In this document: one piece after another, positions 20,362 to 63,033 of the stretch
Layout: each line of letters opens with the position of its first letter
Position numbering within the stretch: the stretch's first letter is position 1
Origin: Anaerolineales bacterium
GTDB lineage: Bacteria > Chloroflexota > Anaerolineae > Anaerolineales > E44-bin32
Assembly (NCBI GenBank): GCA_034430425.1
Contig: DAOUEK010000007.1
Span: 1,090-65,089 of the forward strand
DNA length: 64,000 nucleotides
Reading direction: 5' to 3'
Program-made: the position numbers and the translations under genes
Notes under the pieces: model-generated
The model's database searches: none
Told to the model about the DNA's origin: nothing
The model's input: only the letters and a program-made list of their open reading frames with translations

Positions 20362-20379
20362 CAAGCGCGGAGGAAGAAG

Positions 20380-21840: not shown

Positions 21841-21865
21841 ACATATACCACAGGTAGAAACCAAC

Positions 21866-23794: not shown

Positions 23795-23862
23795 ACTCGT
23801 TGTAGAATCGATTTATAAAGACGATTACACAAGGATTTGTTGAAGCTTACTAGGTGGTAGAA

Positions 23863-24630: not shown

Positions 24631-24665
24631 TCGAACTACGTATTTCATACGACAGGAGAAGGTTA

Positions 24666-34947: not shown

Positions 34948-35030
34948 AGTGAAGGATAAGCTTCGTGACTTCCCATCCCACTCTCGCCCTGTCCTTCCTC
35001 CTTCAAGGTAGAGAACATCGAGTTTGAGAA

Positions 35031-46030: not shown

Positions 46031-46256
46031 TATTGTCTGGACAAATTTATGGTGAAAAAAACGACGAAGACGAACCGGATGCATCACAACACAACAAGAT
46101 CAGCGAACTTACCTTCAAAATCGGACGAGGTTTATCCACTCTGCAGGTGACATCCTGCACTGCCCCACAATCCCCCCTGCTCCTATCATTATTCCATACC
46201 GAATCTCGTCGCAGAGCGCAAGAAAATCAAGCGCTCCCAGCCCACGGGAGGGGCCC

Positions 46257-49200
46257 TTGTCATCAAAGCAAAGGGCGCAGGCAGACCCCCTCGATCGGGC
46301 CCAAAACGACCCGCCCGCTCCCGTCGGAGCGGTCTTGGTCGTCGGCGGTGGCATCGCCGGCATGCAGGCCAGCCTCGATCTGGCCGACCAGGGCTACAAG
46401 GTCCACCTGGTGGAGACGAAGTCCGCCATTGGCGGACACATGGCACAACTCGATAAAACGTTCCCCACGAACGATTGCGCCATGTGCACCATCAGCCCGA
46501 AACTCGTCGACATCGGCCGCCACCTCAACATCGATCTGCGCGTCGACACCGACGTACTCAAAGTCGATGGCCAGCCCGGCGATTTCACGGTCACCCTGCG
46601 TCATAAACCTCGCTACATTGATCCCTTAAAATGCGTCGGTTGTGGTGATTGCGTCGATGTCTGCCCGGTCGTGCTGCCCGACCCGTTCAATGAATCGCTA
46701 TCCTCGCGCCGCGCGGCGCACAAGCTGTACCCACAGGGCGTTCCCAACGCATTTGCCATCTCCAAATTGGGCATCTCTCCCTGCCGCGATGCCTGCCCTG
46801 CCGGCCAGCGAGCCCAGGGTTACATCGCCCTGATCCGCGAAGGCCGCTACGATGACGCCCTGCGCGTGATCAAGGAGGACAATCCCTTCCCCGGTATATG
46901 CGGCCGCATATGCAACCACCGCTGCGAAGATGCCTGCAATCGTGGCCTGATCGACGAGCCGATTAATATCCGCGCTTTGAAACGCTTCGTGACCGATAAG
47001 GTCTACCAGAATCCTCGCCAGGTGCGCGAACCCGTCGAAATCACCCGGAAAGCAAAGGTAGCTGTGATCGGCGCCGGACCGTGCGGCCTGACCGCCGCAC
47101 AGGATCTGGCCATGCTGGGTTATCCGGTTACTGTTTTCGAGGCGCTGCCCGTCGCCGGCGGAATGCTGCGCGTCGGGGTGCCTGAGTATCGCCTGCCGAC
47201 TGAGATCATCGAACGCGAGATCGCCGACATCCTCGACCTGGGCATTGATTTGAAACTCAACACCACGGTTGAGGACATGGATGAGTTATTCGACCAGGGC
47301 TATGAGGCGGTGCTCGTCGCGGTCGGCGCCCATGAGGGGATCCGTCTGCCGATCCCGGGCGCCGACCTTGAGGGCGTTCTGATCAATACCCGCTTCCTGC
47401 GCGATGTCCGCCTGGATAACCCGCCGGCGATCGGCGATCGTGTTCTTGTACTCGGGGGCGGTAACGTGGCTATCGACTGCGCCCGTACCGCCGTACGCAT
47501 GGGCGCCGAAGTGCACATGGCATGCCTCGAGCCGCGCGACAACTTGCCCGGCCATGCCTGGGAAGCTGATGCTGCCGAAGAGGAAGGCGTGGTCATTCAT
47601 GCTGACCGCACTTTCATCCGCATCGTCGATGACGGCAGCGGGCACGCGGCCGGCGTGGAATGCGCACAGGTCGCCCACTTTGATTTCGATCATGAAGGTC
47701 GCTTATCGGTTGAGACAGTTCCCGATTCGGAGCATGTGATCGAAGCGGGCACGATCATTTTTTCCGTTGGTCAGCGCGCTGGTCTGGCTTTCATCCCCGA
47801 TGACGCCGGTGTGGGCGTCACCGCCCAACGCACTATAGCCATCAACCCCAACACCATGGCTGCCACACGACCGGGCGTTTTCGCCGCCGGTGACAGTGTC
47901 TCTGGCACAGCGTTCGTGATCGAAGCCGTGGCCTCCGGCCATCAGGCGGCCGAAAGCATCCATCGCTATTTGCGCGGCGATGAACTCGAGCCGGAGCCCA
48001 AACCCGAACTGCCGGTGGTGAAGTTCAGCCACACCGAGCTTCAGGCGCGTGTTCGCTCCGGTGAGATTAAGCCCACGGGACGGATCCCATTGCCCGAGCT
48101 TCCCGTCGAAGAGCGTAAGGGCTGCTTTGCCGAAGTCGAAGGCGGCTACAGCGACGAAGCGGCGCAAGCCGAAGCAGCTCGCTGCCTGGCCTGTGCGCTG
48201 TGCTCCGAATGTCTCTCCTGCCAGTATATCTGTGGGCGCGACGCCATCAATCACGACGAAGTAGCATCGATCGAGCAGCTGCGTGTGGGTGCGGTGATCC
48301 TGGCCCCCGGCTATGAAATCTACAACGCCGAGCTTTCAGCCGAGTACGGCCTGGGACGCTACCCCAACGTGATTACCGCCTTGCAGCTTGAGCGTTTGCT
48401 TTCTGCCTCCGGTCCTACAGCAGGGCATGTCAACCGGCCCTCCGATGGATCACCGGCGAAGAAGGTGGCTTTCCTGCAGTGCGTCGGCTCGCGCGACAAA
48501 AGTCATGACTACTGTTCCTCAGTATGCTGCATGTACGCCGCCAAAGAAGCGATCATGATCAAAGAGCACGATCCCGAAGCCGAAGTGCACGTGTTCATGA
48601 TGGACATGCGCGCCTTCAGCAAGGGATACGAAAGCTACTACCGCCGCGCCCAGCAGCAATACGACATCCAATACACCCGCTGCAGGGTCTCCGAATTCAA
48701 AGAAGACCCGGACAGCCAGGACATCGTGGTTCGATACGCGAGTCAATCTCCCACAAATGGAAACGGAGTAACTGGCTCCAAGTCGCTGACCCCTGGGTTA
48801 TTGATCAGCGAAGAACACTTCGACCTGGTCGTGCTCTCCGTCGGCATGGAAATATCCGAAAACGTGAAGGCCCTGGGTCGAGATCTCGGTATCCAGCTGG
48901 ATGAATACGGCTTTTGCCATACGGCATTCTTCAACCCATTGGAAACCACCCGCCCGGGGATCTACGCCGTCGGGCCCTTTCGCGAACCGAAGGACATCCC
49001 TGAATCGGTGGTGGACGCCAGCGGCGCCGCAGCGCGGGCTGCCGGCTTGCTCGCCTCCGCACGCCACTCGCTTACCAGCTCACCGGAATACCCACCCGAG
49101 CGAGACGTAACAGGAGAAGATGCGCGCGTAGGCGTCTTCGTCTGTCACTGCGGCTCAAACATCGGCGGTTTTCTGGACGTGCCCAGCGTAGCCGAATACG

Positions 49201-50879
49201 CCAAATCGCTGCCCGGCGTGGTCCACGCCGAGGACAACTTGTACACCTGTTCGCAGGACACTGTGGCGCATATTACCGAGACGGTAAAAGAAATGAATCT
49301 CAATCGTGTCGTCGTTGCCTCCTGTACGCCGCACACCCACGGCCTGCTCTTCCAAGACTGCATCCGCGCGGGTGGGCTTAATCCGGCATTGTTCGATATG
49401 GCCAACATCCGCAATCAATGCTCCTGGGTGCACTCCCACGACAAGCAAGCCGCCACGAGCAAGGCGCGTAGCCTCGTTCGAATGGCCGTGGGCCGTGTGA
49501 TCACACTGGAACCGATCCACACCAGCGAAGTTGAAATCGAACACAGCGCGCTGGTGGTCGGCGGAGGGGTCTCGGGCATGACGGCTGCCCTTTCCCTCGC
49601 CGAGAACGGCTTCGATGTCCATCTGGTCGAGCGGGAAGGACAGCTGGGCGGCAATTTCAACAAGGTGCACTATACCGTAAGCGGCGATGAGCCGCGCGAA
49701 CTTTTGGAAACCCTGATTGCCGATGTCGAGGCGGAAACCCGGATTAAAACCTATCTAAACCATGAAGTAGTCCACACCGACGGATTCATGGGAAAATTCA
49801 CCACCACACTGCGAGATCGAAAAGGGGAAACGCAGGTCGCACACGGCGTGACCATCATCGCCACCGGCGCCCAAGAGTATCACGGATCAGAATACGATTA
49901 CGAGAACAACCCGCGTGTGGTCACCGGTCTGGAATTGGAAGCGCTGCTTGCCAGAGCGCATGGATCCAACATCGATCTCGAAGATCGCGCTGCCGAAGCC
50001 TGGGAAGCGATTGGCAGACAGCTTCCCGCTGAAGTGGCGATGATCTTGTGCGTAGGTCCGGCAGAGCGCTTCTGTGCACGCCTGTGCTGCACCACGGCCT
50101 TGAAACAAGCCTTGACGATCAAGCGTCTCAAACCCGAGGCGGTCATCACGGTACTTTACAAAGACATCCGCACGTATGGCTTCAAGGAATCGCTCTACAC
50201 CGAGGCGCGTGGGGCCGGGGTTCGCTTCGTTCGCTACGACGACGACAACCGACCTGTCGTACGAAGTGTTGAGGCAGGATTGGAAATCGAAATCCGGGAT
50301 CACGTCTTGGGTGAAAACCTAACCTTGTATCCGGGCTTGCTCATGTTAAGCACACCGGCCGTGCCGGCCGAGGGCTCGCGTGAGTTGGCCTCCAAATTCA
50401 AAGTCTCACTCGATCAGGACGGATTCTTCATGGAAGCGCACATTAAACTGCGCCCGGTGGATTTTGCCTCCGACGGCTATTTCATGGCCGGCATGGCACA
50501 TTATCCCAAGTTCGTCGACGAGAGCATCGTCCAGGCTCAGGCGGCCGCCTCGCGTGCCGCGCGTATCATCTCTCGCCCCACGCTGACGGCAGGTGGCGTG
50601 GTTGCCCAGGTCGACCCAACGAAATGTGTCGGCTGCCTGACATGCGTTCGCGTCTGTCCTTATGGTGTGCCCAGGGTGATACCCAATACAACCGGCGTGG
50701 GGGAGATCAGCGGGGCAGCGTATATCGAACCCACGGTTTGCCACGGCTGCGGATCGTGCGCTTCCGAGTGCCCCGCCAAGGCCATCAGCGTCATCCACTA
50801 TCGTGACAACCAGATTACAATCAAATTGGATGCTTTACTGTCGGAGACATTTGATGATAAGGTCAAGGAGAAGGTGTAG
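46257..50879 (+). CDS. hdrA: HdrL-type large HdrA (two HdrA FAD modules plus GltD/NfnB-like NAD(P)H-binding insert), copy 1
   Basis: LDKTFPTNDCAMC; CRDACP..CGRICNHRCEDACNR; GAGPCGL; GGGNVAID; FLQCVGSRD..CSSVCCMYAAK; C-terminal 2x[4Fe-4S]. Confidence 0.93.
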   Translation: MSSKQRAQADPLDRAQNDPPAPVGAVLVVGGGIAGMQASLDLADQGYKVHLVETKSAIGGHMAQLDKTFPTNDCAMCTISPKLVDIGRHLNIDLRVDTDVLKVDGQPGDFTVTLRHKPRYIDPLKCVGCGDCVDVCPVVLPDPFNESLSSRRAAHKLYPQGVPNAFAISKLGISPCRDACPAGQRAQGYIALIREGRYDDALRVIKEDNPFPGICGRICNHRCEDACNRGLIDEPINIRALKRFVTDKVYQNPRQVREPVEITRKAKVAVIGAGPCGLTAAQDLAMLGYPVTVFEALPVAGGMLRVGVPEYRLPTEIIEREIADILDLGIDLKLNTTVEDMDELFDQGYEAVLVAVGAHEGIRLPIPGADLEGVLINTRFLRDVRLDNPPAIGDRVLVLGGGNVAIDCARTAVRMGAEVHMACLEPRDNLPGHAWEADAAEEEGVVIHADRTFIRIVDDGSGHAAGVECAQVAHFDFDHEGRLSVETVPDSEHVIEAGTIIFSVGQRAGLAFIPDDAGVGVTAQRTIAINPNTMAATRPGVFAAGDSVSGTAFVIEAVASGHQAAESIHRYLRGDELEPEPKPELPVVKFSHTELQARVRSGEIKPTGRIPLPELPVEERKGCFAEVEGGYSDEAAQAEAARCLACALCSECLSCQYICGRDAINHDEVASIEQLRVGAVILAPGYEIYNAELSAEYGLGRYPNVITALQLERLLSASGPTAGHVNRPSDGSPAKKVAFLQCVGSRDKSHDYCSSVCCMYAAKEAIMIKEHDPEAEVHVFMMDMRAFSKGYESYYRRAQQQYDIQYTRCRVSEFKEDPDSQDIVVRYASQSPTNGNGVTGSKSLTPGLLISEEHFDLVVLSVGMEISENVKALGRDLGIQLDEYGFCHTAFFNPLETTRPGIYAVGPFREPKDIPESVVDASGAAARAAGLLASARHSLTSSPEYPPERDVTGEDARVGVFVCHCGSNIGGFLDVPSVAEYAKSLPGVVHAEDNLYTCSQDTVAHITETVKEMNLNRVVVASCTPHTHGLLFQDCIRAGGLNPALFDMANIRNQCSWVHSHDKQAATSKARSLVRMAVGRVITLEPIHTSEVEIEHSALVVGGGVSGMTAALSLAENGFDVHLVEREGQLGGNFNKVHYTVSGDEPRELLETLIADVEAETRIKTYLNHEVVHTDGFMGKFTTTLRDRKGETQVAHGVTIIATGAQEYHGSEYDYENNPRVVTGLELEALLARAHGSNIDLEDRAAEAWEAIGRQLPAEVAMILCVGPAERFCARLCCTTALKQALTIKRLKPEAVITVLYKDIRTYGFKESLYTEARGAGVRFVRYDDDNRPVVRSVEAGLEIEIRDHVLGENLTLYPGLLMLSTPAVPAEGSRELASKFKVSLDQDGFFMEAHIKLRPVDFASDGYFMAGMAHYPKFVDESIVQAQAAASRAARIISRPTLTAGGVVAQVDPTKCVGCLTCVRVCPYGVPRVIPNTTGVGEISGAAYIEPTVCHGCGSCASECPAKAISVIHYRDNQITIKLDALLSETFDDKVKEKV

Positions 50880-51000
50880 GTTCTTATTACCATCCTTCGA
50901 CTTCACCTTCGGTTCCACTTAGGATGAATAGAGATCGCTTGATTTATTAGCGGTTGCGGAAAAAGATTAATAGATCATTGAACAGGATCAGGAAGGGAAT

Positions 51001-51477
51001 ATGGCCGAATTCGAGTCGCAAGTCGTCGCTTTTTGCTGCAGCCACTGCGCCTACAACGCTGCCGATCTCGCCGGCAGCCTGCGTATTCAGTACCCGGCGT
51101 CGATAAAAATCATCGAAGTGCAGTGCACCGGGCGTGTAGATATCGAACACATGCTCCATGCTTTCGAAGGCGGCGCCGACGGCGTAATGGTTGCGGGTTG
51201 AATGCCCGGCGACTGTCATTACCTGGAAGGTAATACAAACGCAAGACGACGGGTGGAATTCGCCCGCAAACTTTTGGAAGAAATCGGTCTCGAAAGCCAG
51301 CGGCTGCAGATGATCAACATATCCGCCGCCATGGCTGGCGAATTTTCCTTTGCCGCGGCAGAGATAACGGCAGAGATTCAACGTCTGGGACCCAATCCAC
51401 TACGTATCAACGGCGCCGGACAATCCGACGGTAATGCACCCGCCGTTGAGATAGCGAAAGCGGATGGCGAAAGTTGA
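51001..51477 (+). CDS. mvhD: MvhD-family subunit, selenocysteine form, copy 1 (in-frame UGA 51199-51201)
   Basis: ORFs 51001-51201 and 51202-51477 are in frame and read GADGVMVAG-UGA-MPGDCHY; UGA aligns with the Cys of the 35255 paralog. Confidence 0.93.
51214..51237 (+). other. Putative bacterial SECIS element (TGTCATTACC-TGGAA-GGTAATACA)
   Basis: Hairpin starts 12 nt after the UGA; 9-bp stem with one bulge; G-containing apical loop. Confidence 0.8.
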
Positions 51478-52657
51478 TTCCCTCAAACGCTTCGATGTTT
51501 TCGCAGAGCTTCCCGAGGATGCTCTGATGGAAATTTCGCGCCTGGCCAAACAGGAAGAACATCCTGAAGGAACGGTTCTTTTTCAGGAAGGTGCCACAGC
51601 GCATCAACTCTACCTGATATTGGATGGCAAGATCTCACTCGAGATGCTCGTGCAATTGGGCAGCACAGGCACACCCCGTCGCGCGGCGCTTAATATCGCC
51701 GGCCCAGGCAACGCCGTCGGCTGGTCGAGTATTGTCCCTCCCTATCTCTACACATCCTCCGGTGTGTGTATTGAAGATGTCAACCTGCTGACACTTCCCG
51801 GCGAAGATATACGCAGCTATATTACAGAACATCCCGACATCGGATGTGCAATTTACCAGCGTACGGCATCCTTGATCCGCGGACGAATGAGTAATGCCAC
51901 ATCGATGCTGATGTACTTCCTCTTCATCGTCTCCCATGAATTGAAACGACCCCTGGCCGCTGTGGAAAACTACCTGCAAATACTGTCCGGCGGTTATGCC
52001 GGCGAACTCAGTCCCAAACAAACCCACCTGATCGAACGTAGTACGCTGCGCATCGCCGACCTGCGCAACCTGATCAGCGACATTCTCGATTTCGCCCGCA
52101 TGCAGCCCGAGCAGATTCGCGCAGACTTCGAAAGTCTCGATCCGACTGAGCTCGGCGCCGAAGCGATCGAGGAAGTACGCTTGGCGGCGTCAGAGAAGAA
52201 CGTGCAGCTCAAAGTCATCGGGCCAACTGAATATCGGCCCATCGTCGTCGCTCGACGCCGGCTGCGGCAAGTCATCGCCAATATCCTGGCCAACGCAGTC
52301 AAGTTTTCCCCCGAGGGGAGCACCGTCACCCTAACCGCCCATGACACACCTAAAGCCCTGGTAATCGAAGTGATGGACGAGGGTATCGGCATCCCTGATG
52401 ATGAGCAGGAACACATATTCGATGATTTCTTCCGCGCCAGCAACGTGGGCGAATTCAGGGGCGCCGGCCTGGGTCTCTCCATCGCATATAAAATCATCGA
52501 AGCCCATGAGGGCTCGATCGAAGTCAAGAGCCCCTACGAAAAAGCGAAACCCGGAACCAAGTTCACCATCACCATCCCTCGGACGCTCCCTCTGCCTGGT
52601 CAGAGTAGGAAGTCTGAGCCCGGAACCCATGAGGAGAGGGGGGGATCACATGCGTGA
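51464..52657 (+). CDS. Soluble histidine kinase with N-terminal cNMP-binding (CRP-like) domain
   Basis: LFQEG...LYLILDGKISL cNMP fold; SHELKRPL; NAVKFS; DEGIGIP; GAGLGLSI. Overlaps the mvhD stop. Confidence 0.9.
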   Translation: MAKVDSLKRFDVFAELPEDALMEISRLAKQEEHPEGTVLFQEGATAHQLYLILDGKISLEMLVQLGSTGTPRRAALNIAGPGNAVGWSSIVPPYLYTSSGVCIEDVNLLTLPGEDIRSYITEHPDIGCAIYQRTASLIRGRMSNATSMLMYFLFIVSHELKRPLAAVENYLQILSGGYAGELSPKQTHLIERSTLRIADLRNLISDILDFARMQPEQIRADFESLDPTELGAEAIEEVRLAASEKNVQLKVIGPTEYRPIVVARRRLRQVIANILANAVKFSPEGSTVTLTAHDTPKALVIEVMDEGIGIPDDEQEHIFDDFFRASNVGEFRGAGLGLSIAYKIIEAHEGSIEVKSPYEKAKPGTKFTITIPRTLPLPGQSRKSEPGTHEERGGSHA

Positions 52658-53414
52658 GCAACCATATATTTTGATCGTGGACGACGATCCGGATATCGTC
52701 GAGGGGATTACCGCCGTGCTGGAAACGCGAGACTACCGCCTTGCCAGCGCTGGCGATGGCATTGCCTGCATGAAACTTATCCGGGAGAAGACCCCAGATT
52801 TATTGATCCTGGACATGATGATGCCGCGCATGGACGGTTTCGCCGTCATCCGCGAGCTTCGCGGCGATCCGAAGTATGTTGGTCTGCCCATCATTATTCT
52901 CACCACGGTCATTGAAGATGCCGCCTACCGCCGCTATGAACTTGAGACAGGGCTGGCTATGGATGTGCAAGCCTATATCGAGAAACCGGCACCGCCGGAT
53001 GTGTTGCTGCGCCACGTCACAGCGGTAGTCGATCTGCCCTATATTATTGTCGCCGATGACGACCCGGATATCGTTGCCGCGCTTACCACGGTCCTTGAAT
53101 CCAGGCCCTATCGGGTCAGCTCGGCCGCCAACGGTCAGAGCTGCATCGAACTGGTGCGCAAGCGCAAACCCGATCTACTCATCCTGGATTTACTCATGCC
53201 GCACATGGATGGTTTTGCCGTGATTCGCGAGCTGCGCAGCGAACCCCAATTTACCGATCTACCCATCATCATCCTCACTACCGTGGTTGAAGATGCCAGC
53301 CGCCGGCGTTACGAACTCGAGACGGGTCAGGACATGGCTGTTACACGATACATGCAGAAACCCGTGCCACCCAAGATGCTGCTCAAGCAAGTGAATGAGG
53401 TGTTGAAAAAATGA
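52650..53414 (+). CDS. Tandem REC-REC response regulator without output domain
   Basis: Two near-identical receivers (VDDDPDI..LLILDMMMP..EKP and ADDDPDI..LLILDLLMP..QKP); GAGG-rich RBS before ATG 52650. Confidence 0.9.
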   Translation: MREQPYILIVDDDPDIVEGITAVLETRDYRLASAGDGIACMKLIREKTPDLLILDMMMPRMDGFAVIRELRGDPKYVGLPIIILTTVIEDAAYRRYELETGLAMDVQAYIEKPAPPDVLLRHVTAVVDLPYIIVADDDPDIVAALTTVLESRPYRVSSAANGQSCIELVRKRKPDLLILDLLMPHMDGFAVIRELRSEPQFTDLPIIILTTVVEDASRRRYELETGQDMAVTRYMQKPVPPKMLLKQVNEVLKK

Positions 53415-56400
53415 GCGCGGACAAGGTCACCGGCGCAGTGATGGTCGTAGGCGGCGGTGTCGCCGGCATGCAGGCCAGTCTCGATCTGGCCGAGCAGGGA
53501 TTCCGGGTATTCCTGGTGGAAAGCCAGTCCGCCATCGGCGGTCACATGGCCAAACTGGACAAGACATTCCCCACCAACGACTGTGCCATGTGCATCATCA
53601 GCCCCAAGCTGGTTGAAACCGGTCGTCACCTCAACATCGACTTGATGGTTGACAGTGAAGTCGATAAGGTCGATGGGCAAGCGGGAGACTTCACCGTTAC
53701 CGTGCGGCGTAAACCGCGCTACATCGACATCGAGAAATGCGTTGGATGCGGAGATTGCGCTGAAGTGTGTCCGGTCGTGCTCACCGATAGGTTCAACGAA
53801 GGTTTGGCACCGCGCAAGGCGGTCTACAAACTCTATCCACAGGCGGTCCCCAATGCCTACACGATCGACAAGTTGGGCATTGCCCCTTGCCGCAACGCCT
53901 GTCCCGTCGATCAACGCGCCGAGGGTTACATCGCATTCATTGCAGAAGGCCGCTACCGCGAGGCCTACCGTGTGATCAAGGAAGACAATCCCTTCCCCAG
54001 TGTGTGTGGACGCACCTGCCATCACCCTTGCGAAGGCCACTGCGCTCGCGCCCTAGTCGACGAGCCGGTGAGCATCATGGCCCTGAAACGCTTCGTGATG
54101 GATTACGCCCTGGCCTACGGGCGCGAGAAAGTCGAACCCGTACCCCGCACACGACCGGAGTGGATCGCCGTGGTCGGTGCTGGGCCAGCCGGATTAACCG
54201 CCGCCCACGACCTGGTGAGAATGGGGTACGGCGTGACGGTCTACGAAGCGCTTCCCGTCGCCGGCGGGATGATGCGCGTCGGCATCCCCGCTCATCGTCT
54301 GCCCAAGGGCGTTTTACAGGACGACATCGACGACATCCTCGCGCTGGGCGTGGTGCTGAAAACCAACTCGCCGATTTCCGATCCCACGAAGTTGCTTAAG
54401 GAAGGTTACGACGCCGTTTGTCTGGCGACGGGGATTTCCACCCGCGATCATTCGTTGACCGTGGAAGGCGAGGACGCCGAGGGTGTACTCTCCGCAGCGA
54501 CCTTCCTGCGCAAAGTCAACCTGGGAGAACCGATCACCGTCGGCGAGCGCGTAGCTGTGATCGGCGGCGGCGTGACCGCCCTCGACGCAGCCACCGTTGC
54601 CCGACGTCTGGGCGCGGAAGAAGTTATCCTGGCCTACGACCGCCCACGCGGCGAGCTACCCGCCTACCAGTGGGAAATGGACGCCGTCGAAGCTGAAGGC
54701 ATCCGCCAGCTCGAACACACAACACTGACGCGCATCCTGACCAAAAACGACAGGGTGGTCGGTGTCGAACTGGCCCGCACCGGCCGCGGTACGACTAAAG
54801 ACAAACATGGCCGCCGACGCCCCAAGATCGAAGCCGGCAGCGAATTCACCCTCGAAGTCGATACCGTGATCGGTACCATCGGTCAGCAGTCCGACTTGAA
54901 CTACCTGCACCCTGCGTTCGAGGATCTAAACGGCGACAGCAGAACGCTGGCTTGTGAAGACGCCCCCGGATTGTTCGTCGTCGGTGGGCGCAAGACCGGC
55001 GCCAGCTTCATCGTCGAAGCCATTGCCCTGGGACATCGCGTGGCGAAATCGATTCATCATTATCTACAGGGCACATTCGACAAAATGGAAAAAATCACAC
55101 CACCGGTGGTCAAAGTCACACGCGAGGACATCGAGCGCCGCGTTAAAACGGGGGAGATCGAACTGCTGCCGCGCAACGAATCCAGGCTGCTGCACATGGA
55201 CGAGCGCGTGACAAGTTTTCGTGAAGTGGTTTTGGGGTTGACCGAACGCCAGGCGCGCGCCGAAGCCAAGCGCTGCCTGCAGTGCGGGAACTGTTCGGAA
55301 TGCCTGGCCTGCGTCTATGCTTGTGGCGCGGACGCCATCGATCACGAGATGGTCGAGACCATCCAGGATGTAAAGGTCGGCGCCATCATCCTGGCTCCCG
55401 GTTACCAGACCTATCAGGCTGAACTCTCCGCGGAATACGGTTTGGGCCGCTATCCCAATGTGATCACCGCACTGCAGCTCGAGCGTTTGCTCTCCGCCTC
55501 CGGACCGACCACAGGGCACGTAGTGCGCCCTTCGGACGGGCGCCCGGCGAAGAAAATCGCCTTCCTGCAGTGTGTCGGCTCCCGAGATCAGAATCACGAT
55601 TACTGCTCGGCCGTATGCTGCATGTACGCCACCAAGGAAGCCATTCTGGTCCGAGACCATGATCCCGAAGCCGAAGTGGATATCTTCATGATGGACATCC
55701 GCGCCTTCAGTAAAGGCTACGATGCCTATTACCAGCGTGCCCGGGAACAATTCGACATCCAGTACACCCGCTGCCGAGCATCTGAATTCAAGGAAGCCCC
55801 GGACACCAAGAACATTACGATCCGATATACAGAAGAACAAGGTGTCGGGGTTCGAAACCAGCCTGATTCCGATTTGCCCGAAACACGCATAACCGAAGCG
55901 GAATACGACCTCGTCGTGCTGTCGGTGGGCATGGAAATTTCACAATCCGTTAAAGAGCTCGGCCAGAGATTGGGCATCGAGCTCGACGACTACGGTTTTT
56001 GCAAAACGGCTTTCTTCAATCCCGTTGAAACCTCACAGCCGGGAATCTACGCTGCGGGACCTTTCCGTGAGCCTAAAGACATTCCCGAATCCGTGGTCGA
56101 CGCCAGCGGCGCAGCGGGTCAAGCTGCAACGCTGCTCGCCTCGGCTCGTGACCAACTGACACGCCAGGCCAGTTATCCGCCCGAAAAAACGGTCGGCGAA
56201 CCACGTGTAGGCGTCTTCGTTTGTCACTGCGGCTCCAACATCGCCGGTTACATGGATATCGAAGCCGTCACGGATTACGCCGCCAATCTGCCGCATGTGG
56301 TCCATGCCGACCACATGCTTTACACGTGCTCGCAGGACAGCACGGCGCAGATCCAGGCTTGCATCGTCGAACACGATTTGAACCGCGTCGTGGTGGCTTC

Positions 56401-57973
56401 CTGCACACCGCGCACGCACGGCTCGCTCTTCCGTGACGTGGTGCGTCAGGCGGGTTTGAACGAGTACCTGTTCACAATGGCCAACATCCGCAACCACTGC
56501 TCGTGGGTACACTCGCATGAACCCGATATCGCCACAGAAAAGGCGCAGGATTTAATCCGCATGTCCGTCTCCCGCGTGGTGGGCCTCGAGCCGCTGCACA
56601 CGCAGCCGGTTCCGGTGTGCCAGCAGGCGCTGGTCATCGGCGGCGGTGTGGCAGGCATGAACGCCGCGCTTGCGCTGGCAGAACAGGGTTTCCCCGTCCA
56701 CCTGGTCGAGAAAGAAAAAACCCTGGGCGGCAATTTGCGCGGGGTCTATTTCAATCATGATCCTGGTGATTCGAACGCCGGGCGCGATCCCCAGAATTAT
56801 TTACGGACGTTGATCAAAGAGATTGCAACTCATCCTGCGATAACGACGCACCTATCGAGCCAGGTGCTTCACACCACAGGCTTCGTCGGCAATTTCATCA
56901 CCATGCTGCAGAAGGAAAACGGCAGCCAGGCGGAAATCCAGCACGGTGCCACAATCGTCGCCACGGGCGGCCAGGAGTATCGCGGGGAGGAATATGGTTT
57001 TGCGGAAAGCCCGTGCGTGGTCACTGGACTGCAGTTCGAGGCTCTGTTGGCCAAAACTGGCCGCAAACGGGTGAAACTCGACGAGAAAACGAGTGCGACC
57101 TGGAAGTTGTTAGATAAAAAACCGCCGGATCAGGTGCTGATGATCCAATGCATCGGCCCGGCGGAGGAGACATGCGCCCGCACATGCTGCACCACCGCCT
57201 TGAAACAGGCTCTGCAGCTAAAAGCCCTGCATCCCGAGGCGCGCGTCGTCATGCTGCATCGCGACATGCGTACGTATGGATTCAAGGAGCGTCTTTACAA
57301 GCAGGCGCTCGAGCAAGGCGTGCTTTTCGTGCGCTACGACCCGACGCATAAACCCCAGGTATCTATCAAGGCTGACGGCCAAGTCCACGTGAACGTGCAG
57401 GATCCCGTACTCGGTACGCCGTTGAACTTCAAACCCGACTTACTCGTGCTTTCCACACCTCTCATCCCGGCGAAAGAAAATCAGACGTTGGCCACGAAGC
57501 TAAAGGTGCCCGTCGATTTGGATGGTTGGTTCCTGGAGGCGCACGTCAAACTACGGCCGGTGGATTTCTCCAACGAGGGCATTTTCCTGGCTGGGGCTGC
57601 CCACTACCCCAAACTGCTCGACGAGAGTATCGTACAAGCCCAGGCGGCCGCTTCGCGGGCTGCAACCATCCTGTCCCGCCAGACCTTAGATGCCGGCGGT
57701 TCCGTCGCCCGCGTTGATCCTGAAGCCTGCGTTGGCTGCCTGACGTGCGTGCGCATCTGCCCATATGGTGTGCCGCAGATGCAAATTAATCTTACCGGGG
57801 TTGGTGGCATCGTGGGCGCGGCCTACATCGAACCCGCTGTTTGCCAGGGATGCGGGACATGCGTTGCCGAGTGCCCCGCCTACGCCATCGAACTGCTGCA
57901 TTATCGCCACGACCAGTTGGAGGATGAGGTGGGTGCCTTATTCGAAACGAAGATTGAAGTACGTGAAGGGTGA
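53411..57973 (+). CDS. hdrA: HdrL-type large HdrA, copy 2
   Basis: Same domain order as copy 1: LDKTFPTNDCAMC, CRNACP..CGRTCHHPCEGHCAR, GAGPAGL, CSAVCCMYATK, terminal ferredoxin motifs. Confidence 0.93.
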   Translation: MSADKVTGAVMVVGGGVAGMQASLDLAEQGFRVFLVESQSAIGGHMAKLDKTFPTNDCAMCIISPKLVETGRHLNIDLMVDSEVDKVDGQAGDFTVTVRRKPRYIDIEKCVGCGDCAEVCPVVLTDRFNEGLAPRKAVYKLYPQAVPNAYTIDKLGIAPCRNACPVDQRAEGYIAFIAEGRYREAYRVIKEDNPFPSVCGRTCHHPCEGHCARALVDEPVSIMALKRFVMDYALAYGREKVEPVPRTRPEWIAVVGAGPAGLTAAHDLVRMGYGVTVYEALPVAGGMMRVGIPAHRLPKGVLQDDIDDILALGVVLKTNSPISDPTKLLKEGYDAVCLATGISTRDHSLTVEGEDAEGVLSAATFLRKVNLGEPITVGERVAVIGGGVTALDAATVARRLGAEEVILAYDRPRGELPAYQWEMDAVEAEGIRQLEHTTLTRILTKNDRVVGVELARTGRGTTKDKHGRRRPKIEAGSEFTLEVDTVIGTIGQQSDLNYLHPAFEDLNGDSRTLACEDAPGLFVVGGRKTGASFIVEAIALGHRVAKSIHHYLQGTFDKMEKITPPVVKVTREDIERRVKTGEIELLPRNESRLLHMDERVTSFREVVLGLTERQARAEAKRCLQCGNCSECLACVYACGADAIDHEMVETIQDVKVGAIILAPGYQTYQAELSAEYGLGRYPNVITALQLERLLSASGPTTGHVVRPSDGRPAKKIAFLQCVGSRDQNHDYCSAVCCMYATKEAILVRDHDPEAEVDIFMMDIRAFSKGYDAYYQRAREQFDIQYTRCRASEFKEAPDTKNITIRYTEEQGVGVRNQPDSDLPETRITEAEYDLVVLSVGMEISQSVKELGQRLGIELDDYGFCKTAFFNPVETSQPGIYAAGPFREPKDIPESVVDASGAAGQAATLLASARDQLTRQASYPPEKTVGEPRVGVFVCHCGSNIAGYMDIEAVTDYAANLPHVVHADHMLYTCSQDSTAQIQACIVEHDLNRVVVASCTPRTHGSLFRDVVRQAGLNEYLFTMANIRNHCSWVHSHEPDIATEKAQDLIRMSVSRVVGLEPLHTQPVPVCQQALVIGGGVAGMNAALALAEQGFPVHLVEKEKTLGGNLRGVYFNHDPGDSNAGRDPQNYLRTLIKEIATHPAITTHLSSQVLHTTGFVGNFITMLQKENGSQAEIQHGATIVATGGQEYRGEEYGFAESPCVVTGLQFEALLAKTGRKRVKLDEKTSATWKLLDKKPPDQVLMIQCIGPAEETCARTCCTTALKQALQLKALHPEARVVMLHRDMRTYGFKERLYKQALEQGVLFVRYDPTHKPQVSIKADGQVHVNVQDPVLGTPLNFKPDLLVLSTPLIPAKENQTLATKLKVPVDLDGWFLEAHVKLRPVDFSNEGIFLAGAAHYPKLLDESIVQAQAAASRAATILSRQTLDAGGSVARVDPEACVGCLTCVRICPYGVPQMQINLTGVGGIVGAAYIEPAVCQGCGTCVAECPAYAIELLHYRHDQLEDEVGALFETKIEVREG

Positions 57974-57981
57974 AGGCGAAA

Positions 57982-58422
57982 ATGGCCGAAAATGGAAAAG
58001 ACCTGCAGATCGTCGCCTACTGCTGCCATCATTGCGCTTACGCTGCCGCAGATCTGGCTGGTGTGTTACGCATCCAGTATCCGGCGCAGACCAAGGTCGT
58101 CGAAATTCCCTGCTCCGGACGTTTGGATGTGCTCGAGGTGCTGCATGCCTTCGAACGCGGTGCTGACGGTGTAATGGTCGCCGGTTGACTGCCCGGTGAC
58201 TGTCATTACCTGGAAGGTAATGTTAACGCCAAACGTCGCGTGGAGAAACTCAAACAACTATTGGACTCGATCGGGCTGGAACCCGAGCGCGTGGAGATGT
58301 TCAATCTCTCCTCGGCAATGGCTGCACAATTCGCCGAAACGGTGAGGAACATGGTAGCGCAGATTCAAAGTGTTGGCCCGAGTCCCTTGCGGCTCGCTGC
58401 TGAGGGAATAACCGAACCATAA
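57982..58422 (+). CDS. mvhD: MvhD-family subunit, selenocysteine form, copy 2 (in-frame UGA 58186-58188)
   Basis: YCCHHCAY..IPCSGR..GADGVMVAG-UGA-LPGDCHYLEGN continues in frame into ORF 58240-58422. Confidence 0.93.
58201..58225 (+). other. Putative bacterial SECIS element (TGTCATTACC-TGGAA-GGTAATGTTA)
   Basis: 7-bp perfect stem CATTACC/GGTAATG; 21 nt identical to copy 1; same 12-nt offset from the UGA. Confidence 0.8.
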
Positions 58423-58485: not shown

Positions 58486-59172
58486 ATGATCATTGCAGAA
58501 CAAAAACCACTGGAGGAGATCAAGGCTTTGATCGCGGATGCCGAAAATGTATTGGTCGTTGGCTGCGGCACCTGCGTGACGGTATGCTTTGCCGGCGGGG
58601 AGAAGGAGGCCGGCATCCTGGCCAGCAGCCTGCGCATGTCGACCAAACTCGACGGCGGCCCCAAAGCTGTGGAGCATGTTACCGTGCAGCGCCAGTGCGA
58701 ATGGGAGTATATCGACCCCATCGGGGATCGTGTCGCTGAGGCAGATATGGTGCTTTCGATTGGATGCGGTATCGGTGTGCAGGCGCTCGCCGAACGCTTC
58801 CCGGATGCCATTGTCGTTCCCGGGTTAAATACCTCCTTCTTGGGCTTGCCTACGGAACAAGGTGTTTGGGAAGAACGCTGCGCCGCTTGCGGCGAGTGCA
58901 TCCTCGGATTGACGGGTGGAATCTGCCCCATTGCTCGCTGCGCCAAACAGCTGCTCAATGGACCTTGCGGCGGGTCGCAAAACGGTGTTTGTGAAATCGA
59001 CCCGGATACGCCCTGCGCCTGGCAGTTGATCTACGACAAACTGAAATCACAAAATCGTCTGCACCTGCTGACGGAAATTCAAGCGCCGAAGAACTGGTCC
59101 AGCAGCCGCGACGGCGGTCCTCGAAAAATCACCCGTCAGGATTTACGTCTGGCGGCGGAAGAATCTGAGTAG
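58486..59172 (+). CDS. metV: Methylene-THF reductase Fe-S/Zn subunit MetV
   Basis: GCGTCVTVC, RQCE, CGIGVQ, CAACGECIL..GICPIARCAKQLLNGPCGG..CE..CAW. Confidence 0.93.
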   Translation: MIIAEQKPLEEIKALIADAENVLVVGCGTCVTVCFAGGEKEAGILASSLRMSTKLDGGPKAVEHVTVQRQCEWEYIDPIGDRVAEADMVLSIGCGIGVQALAERFPDAIVVPGLNTSFLGLPTEQGVWEERCAACGECILGLTGGICPIARCAKQLLNGPCGGSQNGVCEIDPDTPCAWQLIYDKLKSQNRLHLLTEIQAPKNWSSSRDGGPRKITRQDLRLAAEESE

Positions 59173-59190: not shown

Positions 59191-60180
59191 ATGACAAAAA
59201 CATCGAGCAATGGATACAAATCCGGCTCTCGCCTGGAACGCCTGCTGCGCACCGGCGAATTCGTGGTCACCGGCGAGTTGGGCCCGCCGCAGGGTGCTGG
59301 CGGGGACGTCATCCGTGAGAAAGCTGTCCTGTTAAAAGGCGTAGTCGATGCGGTAAATATCACCGATAATCAGACTGCCATCGTACGCATGTCCTCGATT
59401 GGCGCCGGTACGATCACCGTGCAGGAGGGTGTGGAACCGATCATCCAGATGACCTGCCGCGACCGCAACCGTCTGGCGATCCAATCCGATCTACTGGGCG
59501 CCTACGCCCTGGGCATGCGCAACGTGCTCTGCCTGACCGGCGATCACCAATCCTTCGGCAACCACCCTACCGCCAAGAACGTCCATGATCTGGACTCGGT
59601 GACGTTGATCCAGATGGTAGTGAAGATGCGAGATGAAGGCAAGTTTGAATGTGGAGATGAAATGAAAGGGATCGAACCGCGCTTCTTCGTCGGCGCAGCG
59701 GCCAATCCCTTCGGCGATCCTTTCGAATTCCGCCCACTCCGTCTGGCAAAGAAAGTCGCCGCCGGCGTGGATTTCATCCAGACACAGTTGATCTACAACA
59801 TCGAACGCTTCGCCGAATACATGCAGAAAGTGCGCGAACTCGGCCTGCACGAGAAGGTATACATTTTGGCCGGCTTGGGTCCGCTGAAGTCTCCGGGCAT
59901 GGCGCGTTACATGCGCGATCAGGTGCCGGGCCTGGACGTACCCGATATCTACGTCGACCGCATGATCGAAGCCGCCAAGGGCATCGATAAAGAAGACAAG
60001 AAAGCCCGTTCCCAGGCCTGGCGTGAGGAAGGCATGAAAATCACCATCGAGCAGATCAAGCAGATGCGCGAGATCGAAGGCGTCGCCGGTGTGCACGTGA
60101 TGGCAATTGAATGGGAAGAGGCAGTCAAACCGATCGTCGAGGGCGCCGGATTGCTGCCGCGTCCGGAACCGGCGGCGTAA
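59191..60180 (+). CDS. metF: Methylenetetrahydrofolate reductase MetF
   Basis: ELGPP, NITDNQ, QMTCRDRNRLAIQSDLLGA, LTGDH, KKVAAGVDFIQTQ. Confidence 0.95.
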   Translation: MTKTSSNGYKSGSRLERLLRTGEFVVTGELGPPQGAGGDVIREKAVLLKGVVDAVNITDNQTAIVRMSSIGAGTITVQEGVEPIIQMTCRDRNRLAIQSDLLGAYALGMRNVLCLTGDHQSFGNHPTAKNVHDLDSVTLIQMVVKMRDEGKFECGDEMKGIEPRFFVGAAANPFGDPFEFRPLRLAKKVAAGVDFIQTQLIYNIERFAEYMQKVRELGLHEKVYILAGLGPLKSPGMARYMRDQVPGLDVPDIYVDRMIEAAKGIDKEDKKARSQAWREEGMKITIEQIKQMREIEGVAGVHVMAIEWEEAVKPIVEGAGLLPRPEPAA

Positions 60181-60190
60181 GGAGATGTCT

Positions 60191-61585
60191 ATGGAGACAA
60201 AACTCAGCACCGATCTGGCCGAACGCATCCGGGAAGCCACCGGTGAGAACGTGTTCCTCTGTTATCACTGCGTGAAGTGCACCTCCGGTTGCCCCCTGAT
60301 GGAGCATTTCGACCTGGCGCCCAACCAGGTGATGCGCGCCGCTCAGTTGGGTATGGAAGACATGATCTTCGAGAGCAAATCGCCCTGGCTGTGCGCCTCC
60401 TGCCAGACCTGCACCACTCGCTGCCCGCAGGGCATCGACATCGCCCGTGTGATGGACTTTATCGTCGGCGAGGCGATGGCCAAAGGCATCAAACCCAAGG
60501 TGCCCGAAGTCGCCCTGTTTAACAAGGTCTTTTTACGCGACATCGACATACTGGGCCGCTCCTACGAGCTGGGGTTGATGGTCGAGATGAACATACGCAC
60601 CAGGCAGCCCTTCAAGGACGTCGGCCTGGGGCTAGACATGATCAAGCACGGCAAGATCGCCTTCCTGCCCTCCGTGATCCGCAAACGCAAGCCGAAGGCG
60701 GAAAAACCACCTCCAGAACGGGAGTCTAAAGAGGTTGGTTATTATCCCGGCTGTTCGTTACATTCCTTGGCCAGGGAGTTTAACCTCTCGGCATTGGCGA
60801 CGCTGGAAGCGCTCGATCGCAAGCCCGTGGAGCCGAAAAACTGGATTTGCTGCGGTTCTTCGCCCGCCCACCGCGTGGACCACGAGCTTGCGGTGCAGAT
60901 GCCGCTCGAAAGCCTGGCACTTTATGAAATGGAAGGCGTTAGCGAGGTTACCCTGCCCTGCGCCATGTGCTTCAACCGCTTCAGGGCCGCGGCGAGAGAA
61001 GTGCGCCTCGATCCCGAATTGAAACAGGAAATGGACCAGGAGTTGGGCTATGCGTATCAAGACAGCCTGGCGATATCATCGCTGCTGGATTACGTCGTCG
61101 AGAACATTGGCCTGGAAGCCGTAGCCGAGAAGGTCAAAAAGCCGCTCGCAGGGTTGAAAATTGCCTGCTATTACGGCTGCCTGCTAACCCGTCCACCCGA
61201 AATCACCGGATCGAAAGAACCGGAATACCCCATGTCCATGGACCGTTTGATGAAGGCGCTGGGGGCAGAGCCAATCGACTGGGACCGTAAAGTGTCCTGC
61301 TGCGGCGCGTCCCTGTCCCTTACGGCGACCGGCATCGTACTCGAAATGAGCGCTGATATCATCGAAAACGCACACGCCCGCGGCGCCGATCTCGTGGCCG
61401 TGGCCTGCCCGATGTGCCACGCCAATATCGACGGACGCCAGGTACAAATGGACATCACACAACCGGTCCCGGCGCTGTATTTTACCCAGCTGATGGCCCT
61501 GGCCTTCGGCATGCCGGAGGAAGCTGCGTTGAAATTCAACATGGTTGATGCGCGACCACTGCTGAAGGAACGAGGTTTCCTATAG
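60191..61585 (+). CDS. Fused HdrC-HdrB heterodisulfide-reductase-like subunit
   Basis: HdrC motifs CYHCVKCTSGCP and CASCQTCTTRCP, followed by two CCG domains (YYPGC..CCG..CAMC; YYGC..CCG..CPMC). AAGGAG RBS. Confidence 0.92.
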   Translation: METKLSTDLAERIREATGENVFLCYHCVKCTSGCPLMEHFDLAPNQVMRAAQLGMEDMIFESKSPWLCASCQTCTTRCPQGIDIARVMDFIVGEAMAKGIKPKVPEVALFNKVFLRDIDILGRSYELGLMVEMNIRTRQPFKDVGLGLDMIKHGKIAFLPSVIRKRKPKAEKPPPERESKEVGYYPGCSLHSLAREFNLSALATLEALDRKPVEPKNWICCGSSPAHRVDHELAVQMPLESLALYEMEGVSEVTLPCAMCFNRFRAAAREVRLDPELKQEMDQELGYAYQDSLAISSLLDYVVENIGLEAVAEKVKKPLAGLKIACYYGCLLTRPPEITGSKEPEYPMSMDRLMKALGAEPIDWDRKVSCCGASLSLTATGIVLEMSADIIENAHARGADLVAVACPMCHANIDGRQVQMDITQPVPALYFTQLMALAFGMPEEAALKFNMVDARPLLKERGFL

Positions 61586-61611: not shown

Positions 61612-62235
61612 TTGCGTAAAGCGCATACTAAAATGATTCGGGCGGCAAGGGAACGCAAGAGTCAAATGCACTCACGACTATGCGAGTTGAGAACCCGTCA
61701 TCCGCTGCAAGGTCGAGAGCTGCCCCCGATTCGCGAGACCGTTGGCCATTGGGTCGACCGTTGGCAGTTGAACCACTTCATCCAGCGCATATCACCGTTT
61801 CAATCCGAAGCGGTCGAGCGCGGTCCGCTGCCGTTCATCATTCTGGCCGAGACCGGCCAGGACGTGCGCCACTGCGCCAACTGCCGCAACTGCGAGGACT
61901 GGACAACTCCCGGTATGGATCTCAACTTTGGAGAGATTCTGCGCGCCGCGGCGCGGAACGACCCCATCGCGCTGCAGAATCAGTCCCTGTGGAACTGCGA
62001 CGATGTGTTCACAAACACGATCCATTGCCATCAAGGCTTCGACATCCCGGCCGTGATCCGTACGCTGCGTCGTGAGGCGAAACTGCGCGGCTACCACAAG
62101 CGCATTTATCGGCTGCGCGCCCTGCACTCGCGGATCCCCAATTGGAGACCACCGATACGATCTCCCCGAATCGACCGAGAACGGATAGAATCCCTGCGTA
62201 GGAAGCTGGAAAACATCAACCGCTTCAAATCATAG
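61612..62235 (+). CDS. Degenerate HdrC-like protein retaining ligands for only one [4Fe-4S] cluster
   Basis: CANCRNC..MDLNFGEILR..SLWNC..IHCHQGFDIPAVIRTLRREA aligns with HdrC. Start codon uncertain. Confidence 0.7.
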   Translation: MRKAHTKMIRAARERKSQMHSRLCELRTRHPLQGRELPPIRETVGHWVDRWQLNHFIQRISPFQSEAVERGPLPFIILAETGQDVRHCANCRNCEDWTTPGMDLNFGEILRAAARNDPIALQNQSLWNCDDVFTNTIHCHQGFDIPAVIRTLRREAKLRGYHKRIYRLRALHSRIPNWRPPIRSPRIDRERIESLRRKLENINRFKS

Positions 62236-62253: not shown

Positions 62254-63033
62254 ATGAAACTCGCCATCACCGGAAAAGGTGGTGTGGGCAAAACCACGCT
62301 CACTTCCCTACTAGCCTATGCCTACGCCGAAAAAGGCTTTCAAGTTCTGGCGATCGACGCCGATCCCGCCCCCTGTCTGGCCGAAGCGCTGGCCTTCCCC
62401 AAAAAACTACTGGAGGGATTGACCCCCATCGCCCGCATGGACGACCTGATCTACGAACGCACCGGCGCCAAGCCGGGTGCAACCGGAGGCTACTTCAAGC
62501 TCAACCCGCGCGTGGACGACATCCCGGATCAATTCTCGGCCGTGCATCGCGGCATCCGTTTACTGGAGATGGGCGCCGTAGAGATGGGTGGATCGGGCTG
62601 CATCTGTCCCGAGAGCGCCATCCTGCGCGCCCTGACCACCCACATTCTCCTGCAGCGCAACGAAGTCATCCTGCTCGACATGTACGCCGGCGTGGAACAT
62701 CTCGGCCGCGCCACGGCGGCCGCCGTCGACGCCATGCTGATTGTGGTCGAACCGACCAAACGCAGCCTGACCACCGCCGAACAGATCAAATCGCTGGCGG
62801 AGGACATCAAACTGAAGAACCTATACATCGTGGGCAGCAAGGTACAGGGGGAAGAAGATCGGGCCTTCATCGAAAGCAACAGCCCCGGGCTGCCGGTGAT
62901 CGGGCACCTGCCGCACGATCCGCATGTGCGCCAGGCCGATCGGGACGGCGCGGCGCTCTATGATCTGGCACCTGAGATGGCGAAAGCCACACAGGCCATT
63001 ATGCAGGCGTTGGAAGCGAAGCGCGAGGACTAA
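62254..63033 (+). CDS. cooC: CO dehydrogenase Ni-insertion ATPase CooC (second paralog)
   Basis: GKGGVGKTT, IDADP, KLNPRVDDIP, GSGCICPES, AGVEHLGRAT. Confidence 0.92.
   Translation: MKLAITGKGGVGKTTLTSLLAYAYAEKGFQVLAIDADPAPCLAEALAFPKKLLEGLTPIARMDDLIYERTGAKPGATGGYFKLNPRVDDIPDQFSAVHRGIRLLEMGAVEMGGSGCICPESAILRALTTHILLQRNEVILLDMYAGVEHLGRATAAAVDAMLIVVEPTKRSLTTAEQIKSLAEDIKLKNLYIVGSKVQGEEDRAFIESNSPGLPVIGHLPHDPHVRQADRDGAALYDLAPEMAKATQAIMQALEAKRED

Follow-up and report, generated by a model that had tools for sequence, protein, structure and literature searches.

The complex of Moorella thermoacetica that combines MetFV with HdrABC and MvhD is NADH dependent and has been proposed to work by electron bifurcation (Mock et al. 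2014, as cited in PMC5861303). The name HdrL was introduced for a large HdrA-type protein of Desulfobacterium autotrophicum HRM2 (Strittmatter et al. 2009, PMC2702500). There and in Syntrophobacter fumaroxidans (PMC5947623), HdrL is a fusion of HdrA with a glutamate synthase small subunit that carries an NAD(P)H site and always has mvhD as the next gene, and some of the HdrL and MvhD proteins of these organisms contain selenocysteine (PMC2702500, PMC5947623). In marine Anaerolineae, hdrA(BC)-mvhD-metVF clusters have been drawn for DscP3, An-B22, SM23_63, and 4484-236 (Sewell et al. 2017, PMC5736913, Fig. 2), with one uninterpreted sentence on a "phoBR" pair that flanks metF_1 in DscP3. Here we describe a cluster of this kind in a stretch of 64,000 nucleotides (nt), referred to as the window, from an uncultured Anaerolineales bacterium (assembly GCA_034430425.1, contig DAOUEK010000007.1, positions 1,090 to 65,089, forward strand). 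In this cluster, two paralogous pairs, HdrL1-MvhD1 and HdrL2-MvhD2, are encoded on either side of a two-component system (TCS) that consists of a soluble histidine kinase (HK) and a response regulator (RR) made up of two receiver (REC) domains.

Open reading frame listing, translation, and Pfam searches gave the plus-strand gene order hdrL1, mvhD1, HK, RR, hdrL2, mvhD2, metV, metF, and hdrCB, with a predicted selenocysteine (Sec) in both MvhD proteins (Table 1). The architecture proposed in the initial annotation, hdrL1-mvhD(U)-kinase-REC-REC-hdrL2-mvhD(U) with overlapping stops and starts, is real: the genes are co-directional and translationally coupled, with overlaps of 14 nt between mvhD1 and the HK gene, 8 nt between the HK and RR genes, and 4 nt (ATGA) between the RR gene and hdrL2. 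The hdrL1 start codon is TTG, 5 nt 3′ of a GGGAGG Shine-Dalgarno sequence, and its position is kept in relatives. Because the window also holds a complete acetyl-CoA synthase/CO dehydrogenase cluster further upstream (cooS, acsB, acsD, acsC, RACo, cooC, and acsE; 14942-25589), we regard the hdrL-met block as the methylene-tetrahydrofolate (methylene-THF) reductase part of the Wood-Ljungdahl pathway. Judged from its gene products, the operon encodes a reductase of the Moorella type, MetVF-HdrCB-MvhD, with HdrL in place of HdrA. As the Moorella complex is summarized in PMC5861303, both systems draw on the same subunit families (metV, metF, hdrB/C, mvhD, and an HdrA-type flavoprotein), lie in one cluster near Wood-Ljungdahl genes, and have a flavoprotein that oxidizes pyridine nucleotide, here as predicted from sequence. 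The present operon differs in that HdrC and HdrB are fused, MvhD is a predicted selenoprotein, and the flavoprotein is an HdrL of about 1,500 amino acids (aa) with a GltD/NfnB-like insert; and whereas the Moorella complex is summarized with one HdrA and without regulators encoded in its cluster, here there are two HdrL-MvhD pairs with a TCS between them. By this comparison of predicted subunits, the operon is a variant of the Moorella reductase that has not been described previously. HdrL1 and HdrL2 resemble the HdrL proteins of D. autotrophicum (PMC2702500) and S. fumaroxidans (PMC5947623) in domain fusion, NAD(P)H site, and neighboring mvhD. The latter, compared here by description, adjoin dsr, fdh, or hdrABC instead of metVF, and neither an embedded TCS nor a tandem HdrL pair has been reported for them.

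To place this layout among related genomes, we searched a single genome of each species with an alignment of HdrL1 and HdrL2 as the query and mapped the window proteins by tblastn. The scan yielded 77 loci, almost all of them from Anaerolineae or other Chloroflexota metagenome-assembled genomes. With L, D, V, F, and CB standing for hdrL, mvhD, metV, metF, and hdrCB, the window layout is variant A, L-D-HK-RR(2xREC)-L-D-V-F-CB, which is also carried by locus L084. Variant B reads L-D-RR(1xREC)-HK-L-D-V-F-CB, and rarer forms either have two kinases and two receivers or interleave the TCS with duplicated metVF genes (L-D-V-HK′-HK-F-REC-REC′-V2-F2-CB). The last arrangement, metV1-HK′-HK-metF1-REC-REC′-metV2-metF2, was found at L137:8603-13004 and in L120, L139, L140, L150, L031, and L038; its HK′ is a PilS-like membrane kinase with six transmembrane segments, and its two REC-only proteins are separate. 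TCS genes lie between the copies in all 25 genome loci with two full-length tandem hdrL genes. Among single-hdrL loci, 31 of 35 are without a TCS, their hdrL being followed by mvhD-metV-metF, and the remaining four carry or probably carry duplicated metVF. The association of the TCS with tandem hdrL is thus strong (Fisher's exact P = 5e-13, uncorrected for shared ancestry). A scan of metagenomes with a 13-kinase alignment as the query, which selects loci through the kinase, retrieved 80 kinase loci at 47 to 92% identity, and in 80/80 of these mvhD, hdrL, or metF adjoins the kinase wherever flanks exist. The protein database contained 1987 kinase relatives at E ≤ 1e-20, the best 120 of which have identities of at least 59%. 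The kinase search also recovered a protein of SM23_63, a genome included in Sewell et al. (2017).

The kinase always stood beside mvhD, hdrL, or metF in the sampled loci, and the TCS is therefore dedicated to the cluster, which is syntenic in more than 100 loci. The initial annotation had considered that the arrangement might be unique to this assembly or that the TCS might regulate unrelated genes. Instead, the arrangement is shared by 25 species-representative genomes and dozens of metagenome contigs, and the TCS is specific to the cluster and tracks the duplicated module, far beyond chance. We are all but certain of the gene identities and of the conserved association with a dedicated TCS. 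The same annotation took the architecture to be undescribed, which needs qualification: Sewell et al. (2017, PMC5736913) drew clusters of the same type in the same lineage and noted the DscP3 "phoBR" genes, in a layout equal to variant D found here. They treated the large gene as hdrA, and the tandem paralogs, the divergence of the GltD-like module, the missing output domain, and the co-occurrence rule went unreported there and are not described elsewhere in the literature searched. In that literature, a histidine kinase or receiver was linked to mvhD-metF clusters only by Sewell et al. (2017), and no paper was found with both HdrL and Chloroflexi.

The duplication itself is old. HdrL1 and HdrL2 share 57% protein identity overall, with a longest identical run of about 30 aa, and the best DNA blocks of their genes are 68 to 76% identical (maximum, 87% over 53 nt). 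What had been described as long near-identical blocks are in fact conserved protein motifs. This degree of DNA divergence between the copies rules out recent duplication, gene conversion, or misassembly. Orthologous HdrL proteins are 66 to 75% identical and paralogs are 57 to 61% identical; the duplication is therefore older than the split of these lineages. In a neighbor-joining tree of 103 HdrL proteins (bootstrap out of 100), the second copies of the window type, including HdrL2, form a single monophyletic clade (100/100), and the first copies group with single-copy HdrL proteins of related species. Hence, of the two ages that the initial annotation had entertained for the duplication, the ancient one applies. 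Within the tree, the first copies of variant A form a clade with L016, L021, and L022 (93/100). In these three loci exactly the block HK-RR-hdrL2-mvhD2 is missing and mvhD1 runs straight into metV; all three species are close kin of tandem carriers, and the HdrL1 sequences of L016 and L003 are nearly identical. The pattern suggests that the accessory head and its TCS were lost jointly, as a recent, secondary event.

We then compared the two paralogs with proteins of solved structure. The HdrL1 core matched HdrA (5odc_A, E = 7e-175, in four stretches), and its insert matched NfnL (5jca_L, E = 5e-74) and GltD (6s6s_G, E = 9e-50); Pfam placed Fer4_20, Pyr_redox_2, and Pyr_redox domains in the HdrL inserts. 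The proteins have the HdrA core with its thioredoxin-reductase-like FAD domain(s), N-terminal Cys cluster, and C-terminal ferredoxin domain, as well as the GltD/NfnB-like module, and each hdrL copy is followed by an FlpD-family gene, mvhD, as expected for HdrL. Both inserts align over their full length with NfnB/NfnL and GltD (4ylf_B, 5jca_L, and 2vdc_G), across the two [4Fe-4S] Cys motifs, the FAD site, and the NAD(P)H Rossmann folds, and all Fe-S cysteine columns are kept in both paralogs.

Differences between the two HdrL types are concentrated in this insert. We counted a position as discriminating if its conservation reached at least 90% in each of type I and type II and the residue differed between the two types; 46/46 such positions fall within residues 200 to 654, which make up the GltD/NfnB-like insert. 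Among them are those aligned to the Tyr-Arg-Arg (YRR) with which NfnB/NfnL bind NADPH and to the FAD GD motif. Where NfnL 5jca_L has "LYRRTR" and NfnB 4ylf_B has "VYRRTE", the Tyr-Arg-Arg is replaced by Cys-Leu-Glu in HdrL1 (C423-L424-E425) and by Tyr-Asp-Arg in HdrL2 (Y409-D410-R411). HdrL2 also lacks the GD aspartate of the GltD-module FAD motif, which reads G525-G526-R527-K528. Type I (C-L/V-E) comprises HdrL1, all first copies, and most single copies; type II (L/Y-D-R, with GD changed to GGRK) is the type of HdrL2; and type III (Y-R-R) comprises second copies in other lineages and the sole copies of Thermoflexus-like genomes. Type II HdrL has the TCS directly upstream in 33/33 cases with upstream context and is never the sole HdrL. 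In Rossmann folds, an acidic residue at the end of β2 favors NAD(H) and Arg residues favor NADP(H). On this general rule, the nucleotide site of type I suggests an NADH-like preference, and that of type III would be NADPH-like. These differences support the earlier proposal of two alternative electron-input heads, and we consider it probable that the two HdrL heads are functionally distinct and alternative. We propose HdrL1 (type I) as the ancestral head for general purposes and HdrL2 (type II) as an old accessory paralog.

The kinase has no transmembrane segment, and its HisKA domain (H-box His158) and HATPase_c domain scored above the Pfam cutoffs, with the motifs SHELKRP, NAVKFSP, DEGIGIP, and GAGLGLS kept in 37 orthologs. 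The initial annotation had labeled it as a kinase of the cyclic nucleotide monophosphate (cNMP) kind. Its sensor domain does match Pfam PF00027 (CAP_ED, cNMP_binding) at 40.7 bits against a cutoff of 27.5, but both key cNMP contacts are replaced. In the phosphate-binding cassette, a Glu contacts the ribose 2′-OH and an Arg contacts the cyclic phosphate. Compared with GlxR (4cyd/4byy), the cassette changes from G-E-L-S / P-R-T-S-S to G-W-S-S / L-Y-T-S-S, with Trp in place of Glu and Tyr in place of Arg, and the motif "GWSSL..PY.YTSS" is kept across all kinase orthologs. Canonical sensing of cyclic AMP (cAMP) or cyclic GMP (cGMP) was rejected on these grounds. The solved structure closest to the sensor (window 51464-51898) is PDB 3mdp_A, a Geobacter "CNMP-BD protein" from structural genomics, which carries the same noncanonical cassette (G-V/W-S-S-L..P-Y-x-Y-T-S-S). 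The CAP-like subfamily with that cassette probably binds a ligand other than cAMP or cGMP.

By alignment with CheY, both receiver domains of the RR have the full phospho-acceptor set (D11/D12 or D12/D13, D55, T85/T86, Y109, and K112, with equivalents in REC2). Each also has a five-residue insertion relative to CheY in the β4-α4 region, with an invariant LTTV(I/V)EDA(A/S)(Y/R)RRYELETG. The α4-β5-α5 face is the usual signaling surface of receivers. This α4 motif stays the same regardless of the kind of second module (HdrL type II, HdrL type III, or MetVF2); the receiver therefore probably has a target that all variants share or one that lies outside the cluster. The description of the signaling pair as lacking a DNA-binding domain holds up: Pfam detected only PF00072 in the window protein, the best 120 of 1190 receiver relatives (E ≤ 1e-10) are all REC-only, and the regulators of the variant loci, including those with extra kinases, likewise have no output domain. 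Full phospho-acceptor pockets without an effector domain are also found in the stand-alone receivers CheY, Spo0F, and DivK and in FrzZ of Myxococcus, which, like the RR, consists of two fused receivers; these proteins act by protein-protein contact or phosphotransfer. They differ from the present family in that the latter has its own invariant α4 insertion, and none of them is known to be encoded within an operon for a metabolic redox complex or to serve such an operon specifically.

Transcriptional signals were sought across the cluster. About 150 nt directly 5′ of the hdrL1 start (46108-46256) are near-invariant in five relatives, and the sequence beyond is unalignable. With nhmmer, the same type of region was found directly 5′ of hdrL1 in 19 loci, including the TCS-free loci L016 and L022. 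Conserved within it are GGAYGAAGTTTRTCC, RTGACATCYNSCAC, and a hairpin (CTCCY...GGGAG) that covers the Shine-Dalgarno sequence. The region has palindromic, CRP/FNR-like blocks, and the half-sites of this type in RTGACATCYNSCAC are centered some 42 nt 5′ of a hexamer, TATCAT. A structured leader RNA was considered and is not favored: RNAalifold returned only nine pairs and one compensatory change, and there was no Rfam match. Because covariation is almost absent and Rfam gave no match, the region is better read as a promoter/operator than as a riboswitch. The Rfam scan of the whole cluster likewise detected no riboswitch or known RNA at E ≤ 1, and sigma-70 promoter and terminator consensus hits on its plus strand were no more numerous than in shuffled sequence. 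The gap before hdrL2 in variant-B loci (11 to 115 nt) could not be aligned, and no conserved internal promoter/operator was found there. The gap of 121 nt between hdrL1 and mvhD1 (50880-51000) is AT-rich. Only the window and the nearest relatives have it; in most other variant-A relatives, the two genes are less than 30 nt apart.

The best overall explanation, which we hold with moderate confidence, is that the operon provides two alternative HdrL-MvhD heads under protein-level control by the embedded TCS. In this scheme, either the HdrL1-MvhD1 or the HdrL2-MvhD2 head would feed electrons into one MetVF-HdrCB acceptor part. The CAP-like domain of the soluble kinase would probably bind an intracellular metabolite other than cAMP or cGMP, and the kinase would phosphorylate the receiver, whose invariant α4 surface (EDAxxRRYELETG) would dock on a component common to all complex variants. 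Docking would shift the use or activity of the input module, or of the acceptor module where metVF is duplicated, and control would be exerted through protein-protein contact and not through transcription. We favor output at the protein level because no output domain was seen in the family, the TCS genes are coupled between structural genes, and there is no conserved regulatory spacer before hdrL2. Post-translational switching is plausible on this basis. That the receiver acts directly on the enzyme complex is a tentative proposal, and the full statement, in which a phospho-receiver driven by a metabolite-sensing soluble kinase binds the bifurcating reductase and selects the HdrL-MvhD head or the MetVF module, is speculative and may well prove wrong.

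Several points weigh against this explanation. The strongly conserved region 5′ of hdrL1 indicates a control of operon transcription or translation that does not depend on the TCS. Stand-alone receivers are often phosphorelay intermediates or phosphate sinks, and a DNA-binding regulator encoded elsewhere could be the output. The Asp-Arg signature of type II is ambiguous as to nucleotide preference, and with the GD aspartate lost, the FAD site of this type could be impaired instead of alternative. Both heads might also be assembled together instead of alternating. To these are added the shared ancestry behind the co-occurrence statistic and the selection of the metagenome loci through the kinase. 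The main rival to post-translational switching is a phosphorelay, branched pathway, or sink/connector in which the receivers pass phosphate to a distant DNA-binding regulator of the operon or of a Wood-Ljungdahl regulon, so that the head would be chosen through expression. Receivers without an output domain are known from relay proteins of the Spo0F type, a conserved promoter-like region with palindromic, CRP/FNR-like blocks stands 5′ of hdrL1, and variants with two kinases and two receivers are typical of multi-input relays. However, neither a histidine phosphotransfer (Hpt) protein nor a DNA-binding regulator was found in the cluster across about 150 loci, the conserved region is also present where the TCS is absent (L016 and L022), and the kinase family is confined to this gene context among the 80 loci sampled. 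Moreover, hdrL1 and hdrL2 would be hard to transcribe differentially, since hdrL2 overlaps the RR gene and has no conserved internal promoter/operator before it. We consider such a relay possible but rather unlikely.

Alternatively, HdrL1 and HdrL2 could be simultaneous subunits of a larger hetero-oligomer, for instance one that would use two different pyridine nucleotides simultaneously and thereby couple a transhydrogenase-like reaction to the reduction of methylene-THF, with the TCS tuning only overall activity or expression. Translational coupling and co-transcription of hdrL1 and hdrL2 in a single operon would fit such co-assembly, as would the differing nucleotide-site signatures of the two heads and the dimerization of HdrA-type proteins in solved complexes (the 5odc family). 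It is difficult to reconcile with the many related species that run the cluster with one HdrL (type I or III), with L016, L021, and L022, which lost exactly the second head and the TCS and kept the rest, with the provision of each HdrL with its own MvhD, and with the variants that duplicate metVF, not hdrL, around the same TCS. We judge it quite improbable. An assembly artefact, or the chance placing of an unrelated TCS beside a recently duplicated gene, has next to no probability; nothing was found in its favor, and it is already refuted by the divergence of the paralog DNA (68 to 76% identity), the identical gene order in independent assemblies from many environments, and the specificity of the kinase and receiver families for this gene context.

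The energetics of the Wood-Ljungdahl pathway hinge on the methylene-THF reductase step, for which the electron donors and acceptors remain under debate even in Moorella. Anaerolineae rank among the most abundant bacteria of anoxic sediments and digesters. Two heads that differ at their nucleotide and flavin sites would imply a methylene-THF step run with different reductants or in different directions, and the paralog pairs are natural material for dissecting donor specificity. An output-less TCS between alternative modules raises the rarely considered and now testable possibility of phospho-signaling on a bifurcating complex instead of on DNA. The partners are well defined, with a single kinase, a single receiver, and five or six subunits as candidate targets. 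If the receiver does select the head or acceptor, this would be the first TCS known to remodel a redox complex of central metabolism post-translationally. Recurrence of the layout in well over 100 related sequences suggests an undescribed way of regulating an electron-bifurcating enzyme.

Each mvhD gene encodes one FlpD domain split by an in-frame TGA; the two halves of mvhD1 match positions 1 to 59 and 62 to 123 of Pfam FlpD. The TGA aligns with the first Cys of the motif G-[U/C]-x-P-G-x-C-H and occurs at this position in 74 of the 82 mvhD genes in the loci retrieved, the other eight coding for Cys. A hairpin with the core CAYUAYCUNGANGGNAA lies about 15 nt 3′ of the TGA in 74/74 UGA genes and in 0/8 Cys genes. 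It behaves as expected for a bacterial selenocysteine insertion sequence (SECIS) element, and Sec insertion is predicted. Neither tRNA-Sec nor any other tRNA was found within the window.

Table 1. Positions and assignments of the hdrL-met cluster features and adjoining genes (window numbering)
Feature	Position	Strand	Assignment and remarks
Conserved region 5′ of hdrL1	46108-46256	+	Probably promoter/operator plus Shine-Dalgarno sequence
hdrL1	46257-50879	+	1540 aa; HdrA-type flavoprotein with inserted GltD/NfnB-like NAD(P)H:FAD module; type I; Pfam Pyr_redox_2, Fer4_20, Fer4
mvhD1 (FlpD, [2Fe-2S] subunit, Sec)	51001-51477	+	In-frame TGA at 51199-51201; SECIS-like hairpin at about 51218-51234
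Histidine kinase (HK)	51464-52657	+	cNMP_binding, HisKA (His158), and HATPase_c (Pfam, ortholog alignment); soluble
Response regulator (RR)	52650-53414	+	Response_reg x2 only (Pfam); phospho-acceptors Asp55 and Asp180
hdrL2	53411-57973	+	1520 aa; paralog of hdrL1; type II
mvhD2 (Sec)	57982-58422	+	In-frame TGA at 58186-58188; SECIS-like hairpin at about 58204-58222
metV (MTHFR_C/DUF5981 Fe-S subunit)	58486-59172	+	Pfam PF12225, E = 8e-38
metF (methylene-tetrahydrofolate reductase)	59191-60180	+	Pfam PF02219, E = 2e-36
hdrCB fusion (4Fe-4S dicluster and two CCG domains)	60185-61585	+	Pfam CCG, Fer4_17; syntenic in relatives
Gene without assigned function	61612-62235	+	207 aa; no Pfam match
cooC/CbiA-type P-loop ATPase (Ni-insertion accessory type)	62254-63033	+	Pfam CbiA; syntenic in relatives

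The 207-aa gene downstream of hdrCB has full-length matches in the closest relatives (70 to 82% identity) and partial matches in several others; none was detected in the tblastn maps of more distant loci. One locus labeled "Methanosarcinales archaeon" (L008, JAIWHF010000006.1) carries an Anaerolineae-type cluster with 60 to 73% protein identity to the window and is probably a misbinned contig. A third Hdr module, at 31723-35704, pairs a gene for an HdrA-HdrA-like protein of 1074 aa, which has no GltD-like insert, with a downstream MvhD/FlpD gene that is uninterrupted. The module stands directly 5′ of hdrL1 in many relatives. In the window, the two are separated by about 10 kb, mostly galactose-utilization genes (galT, a lacI-type regulator, a sugar ABC transporter, and galK), and this stretch may be an insertion.

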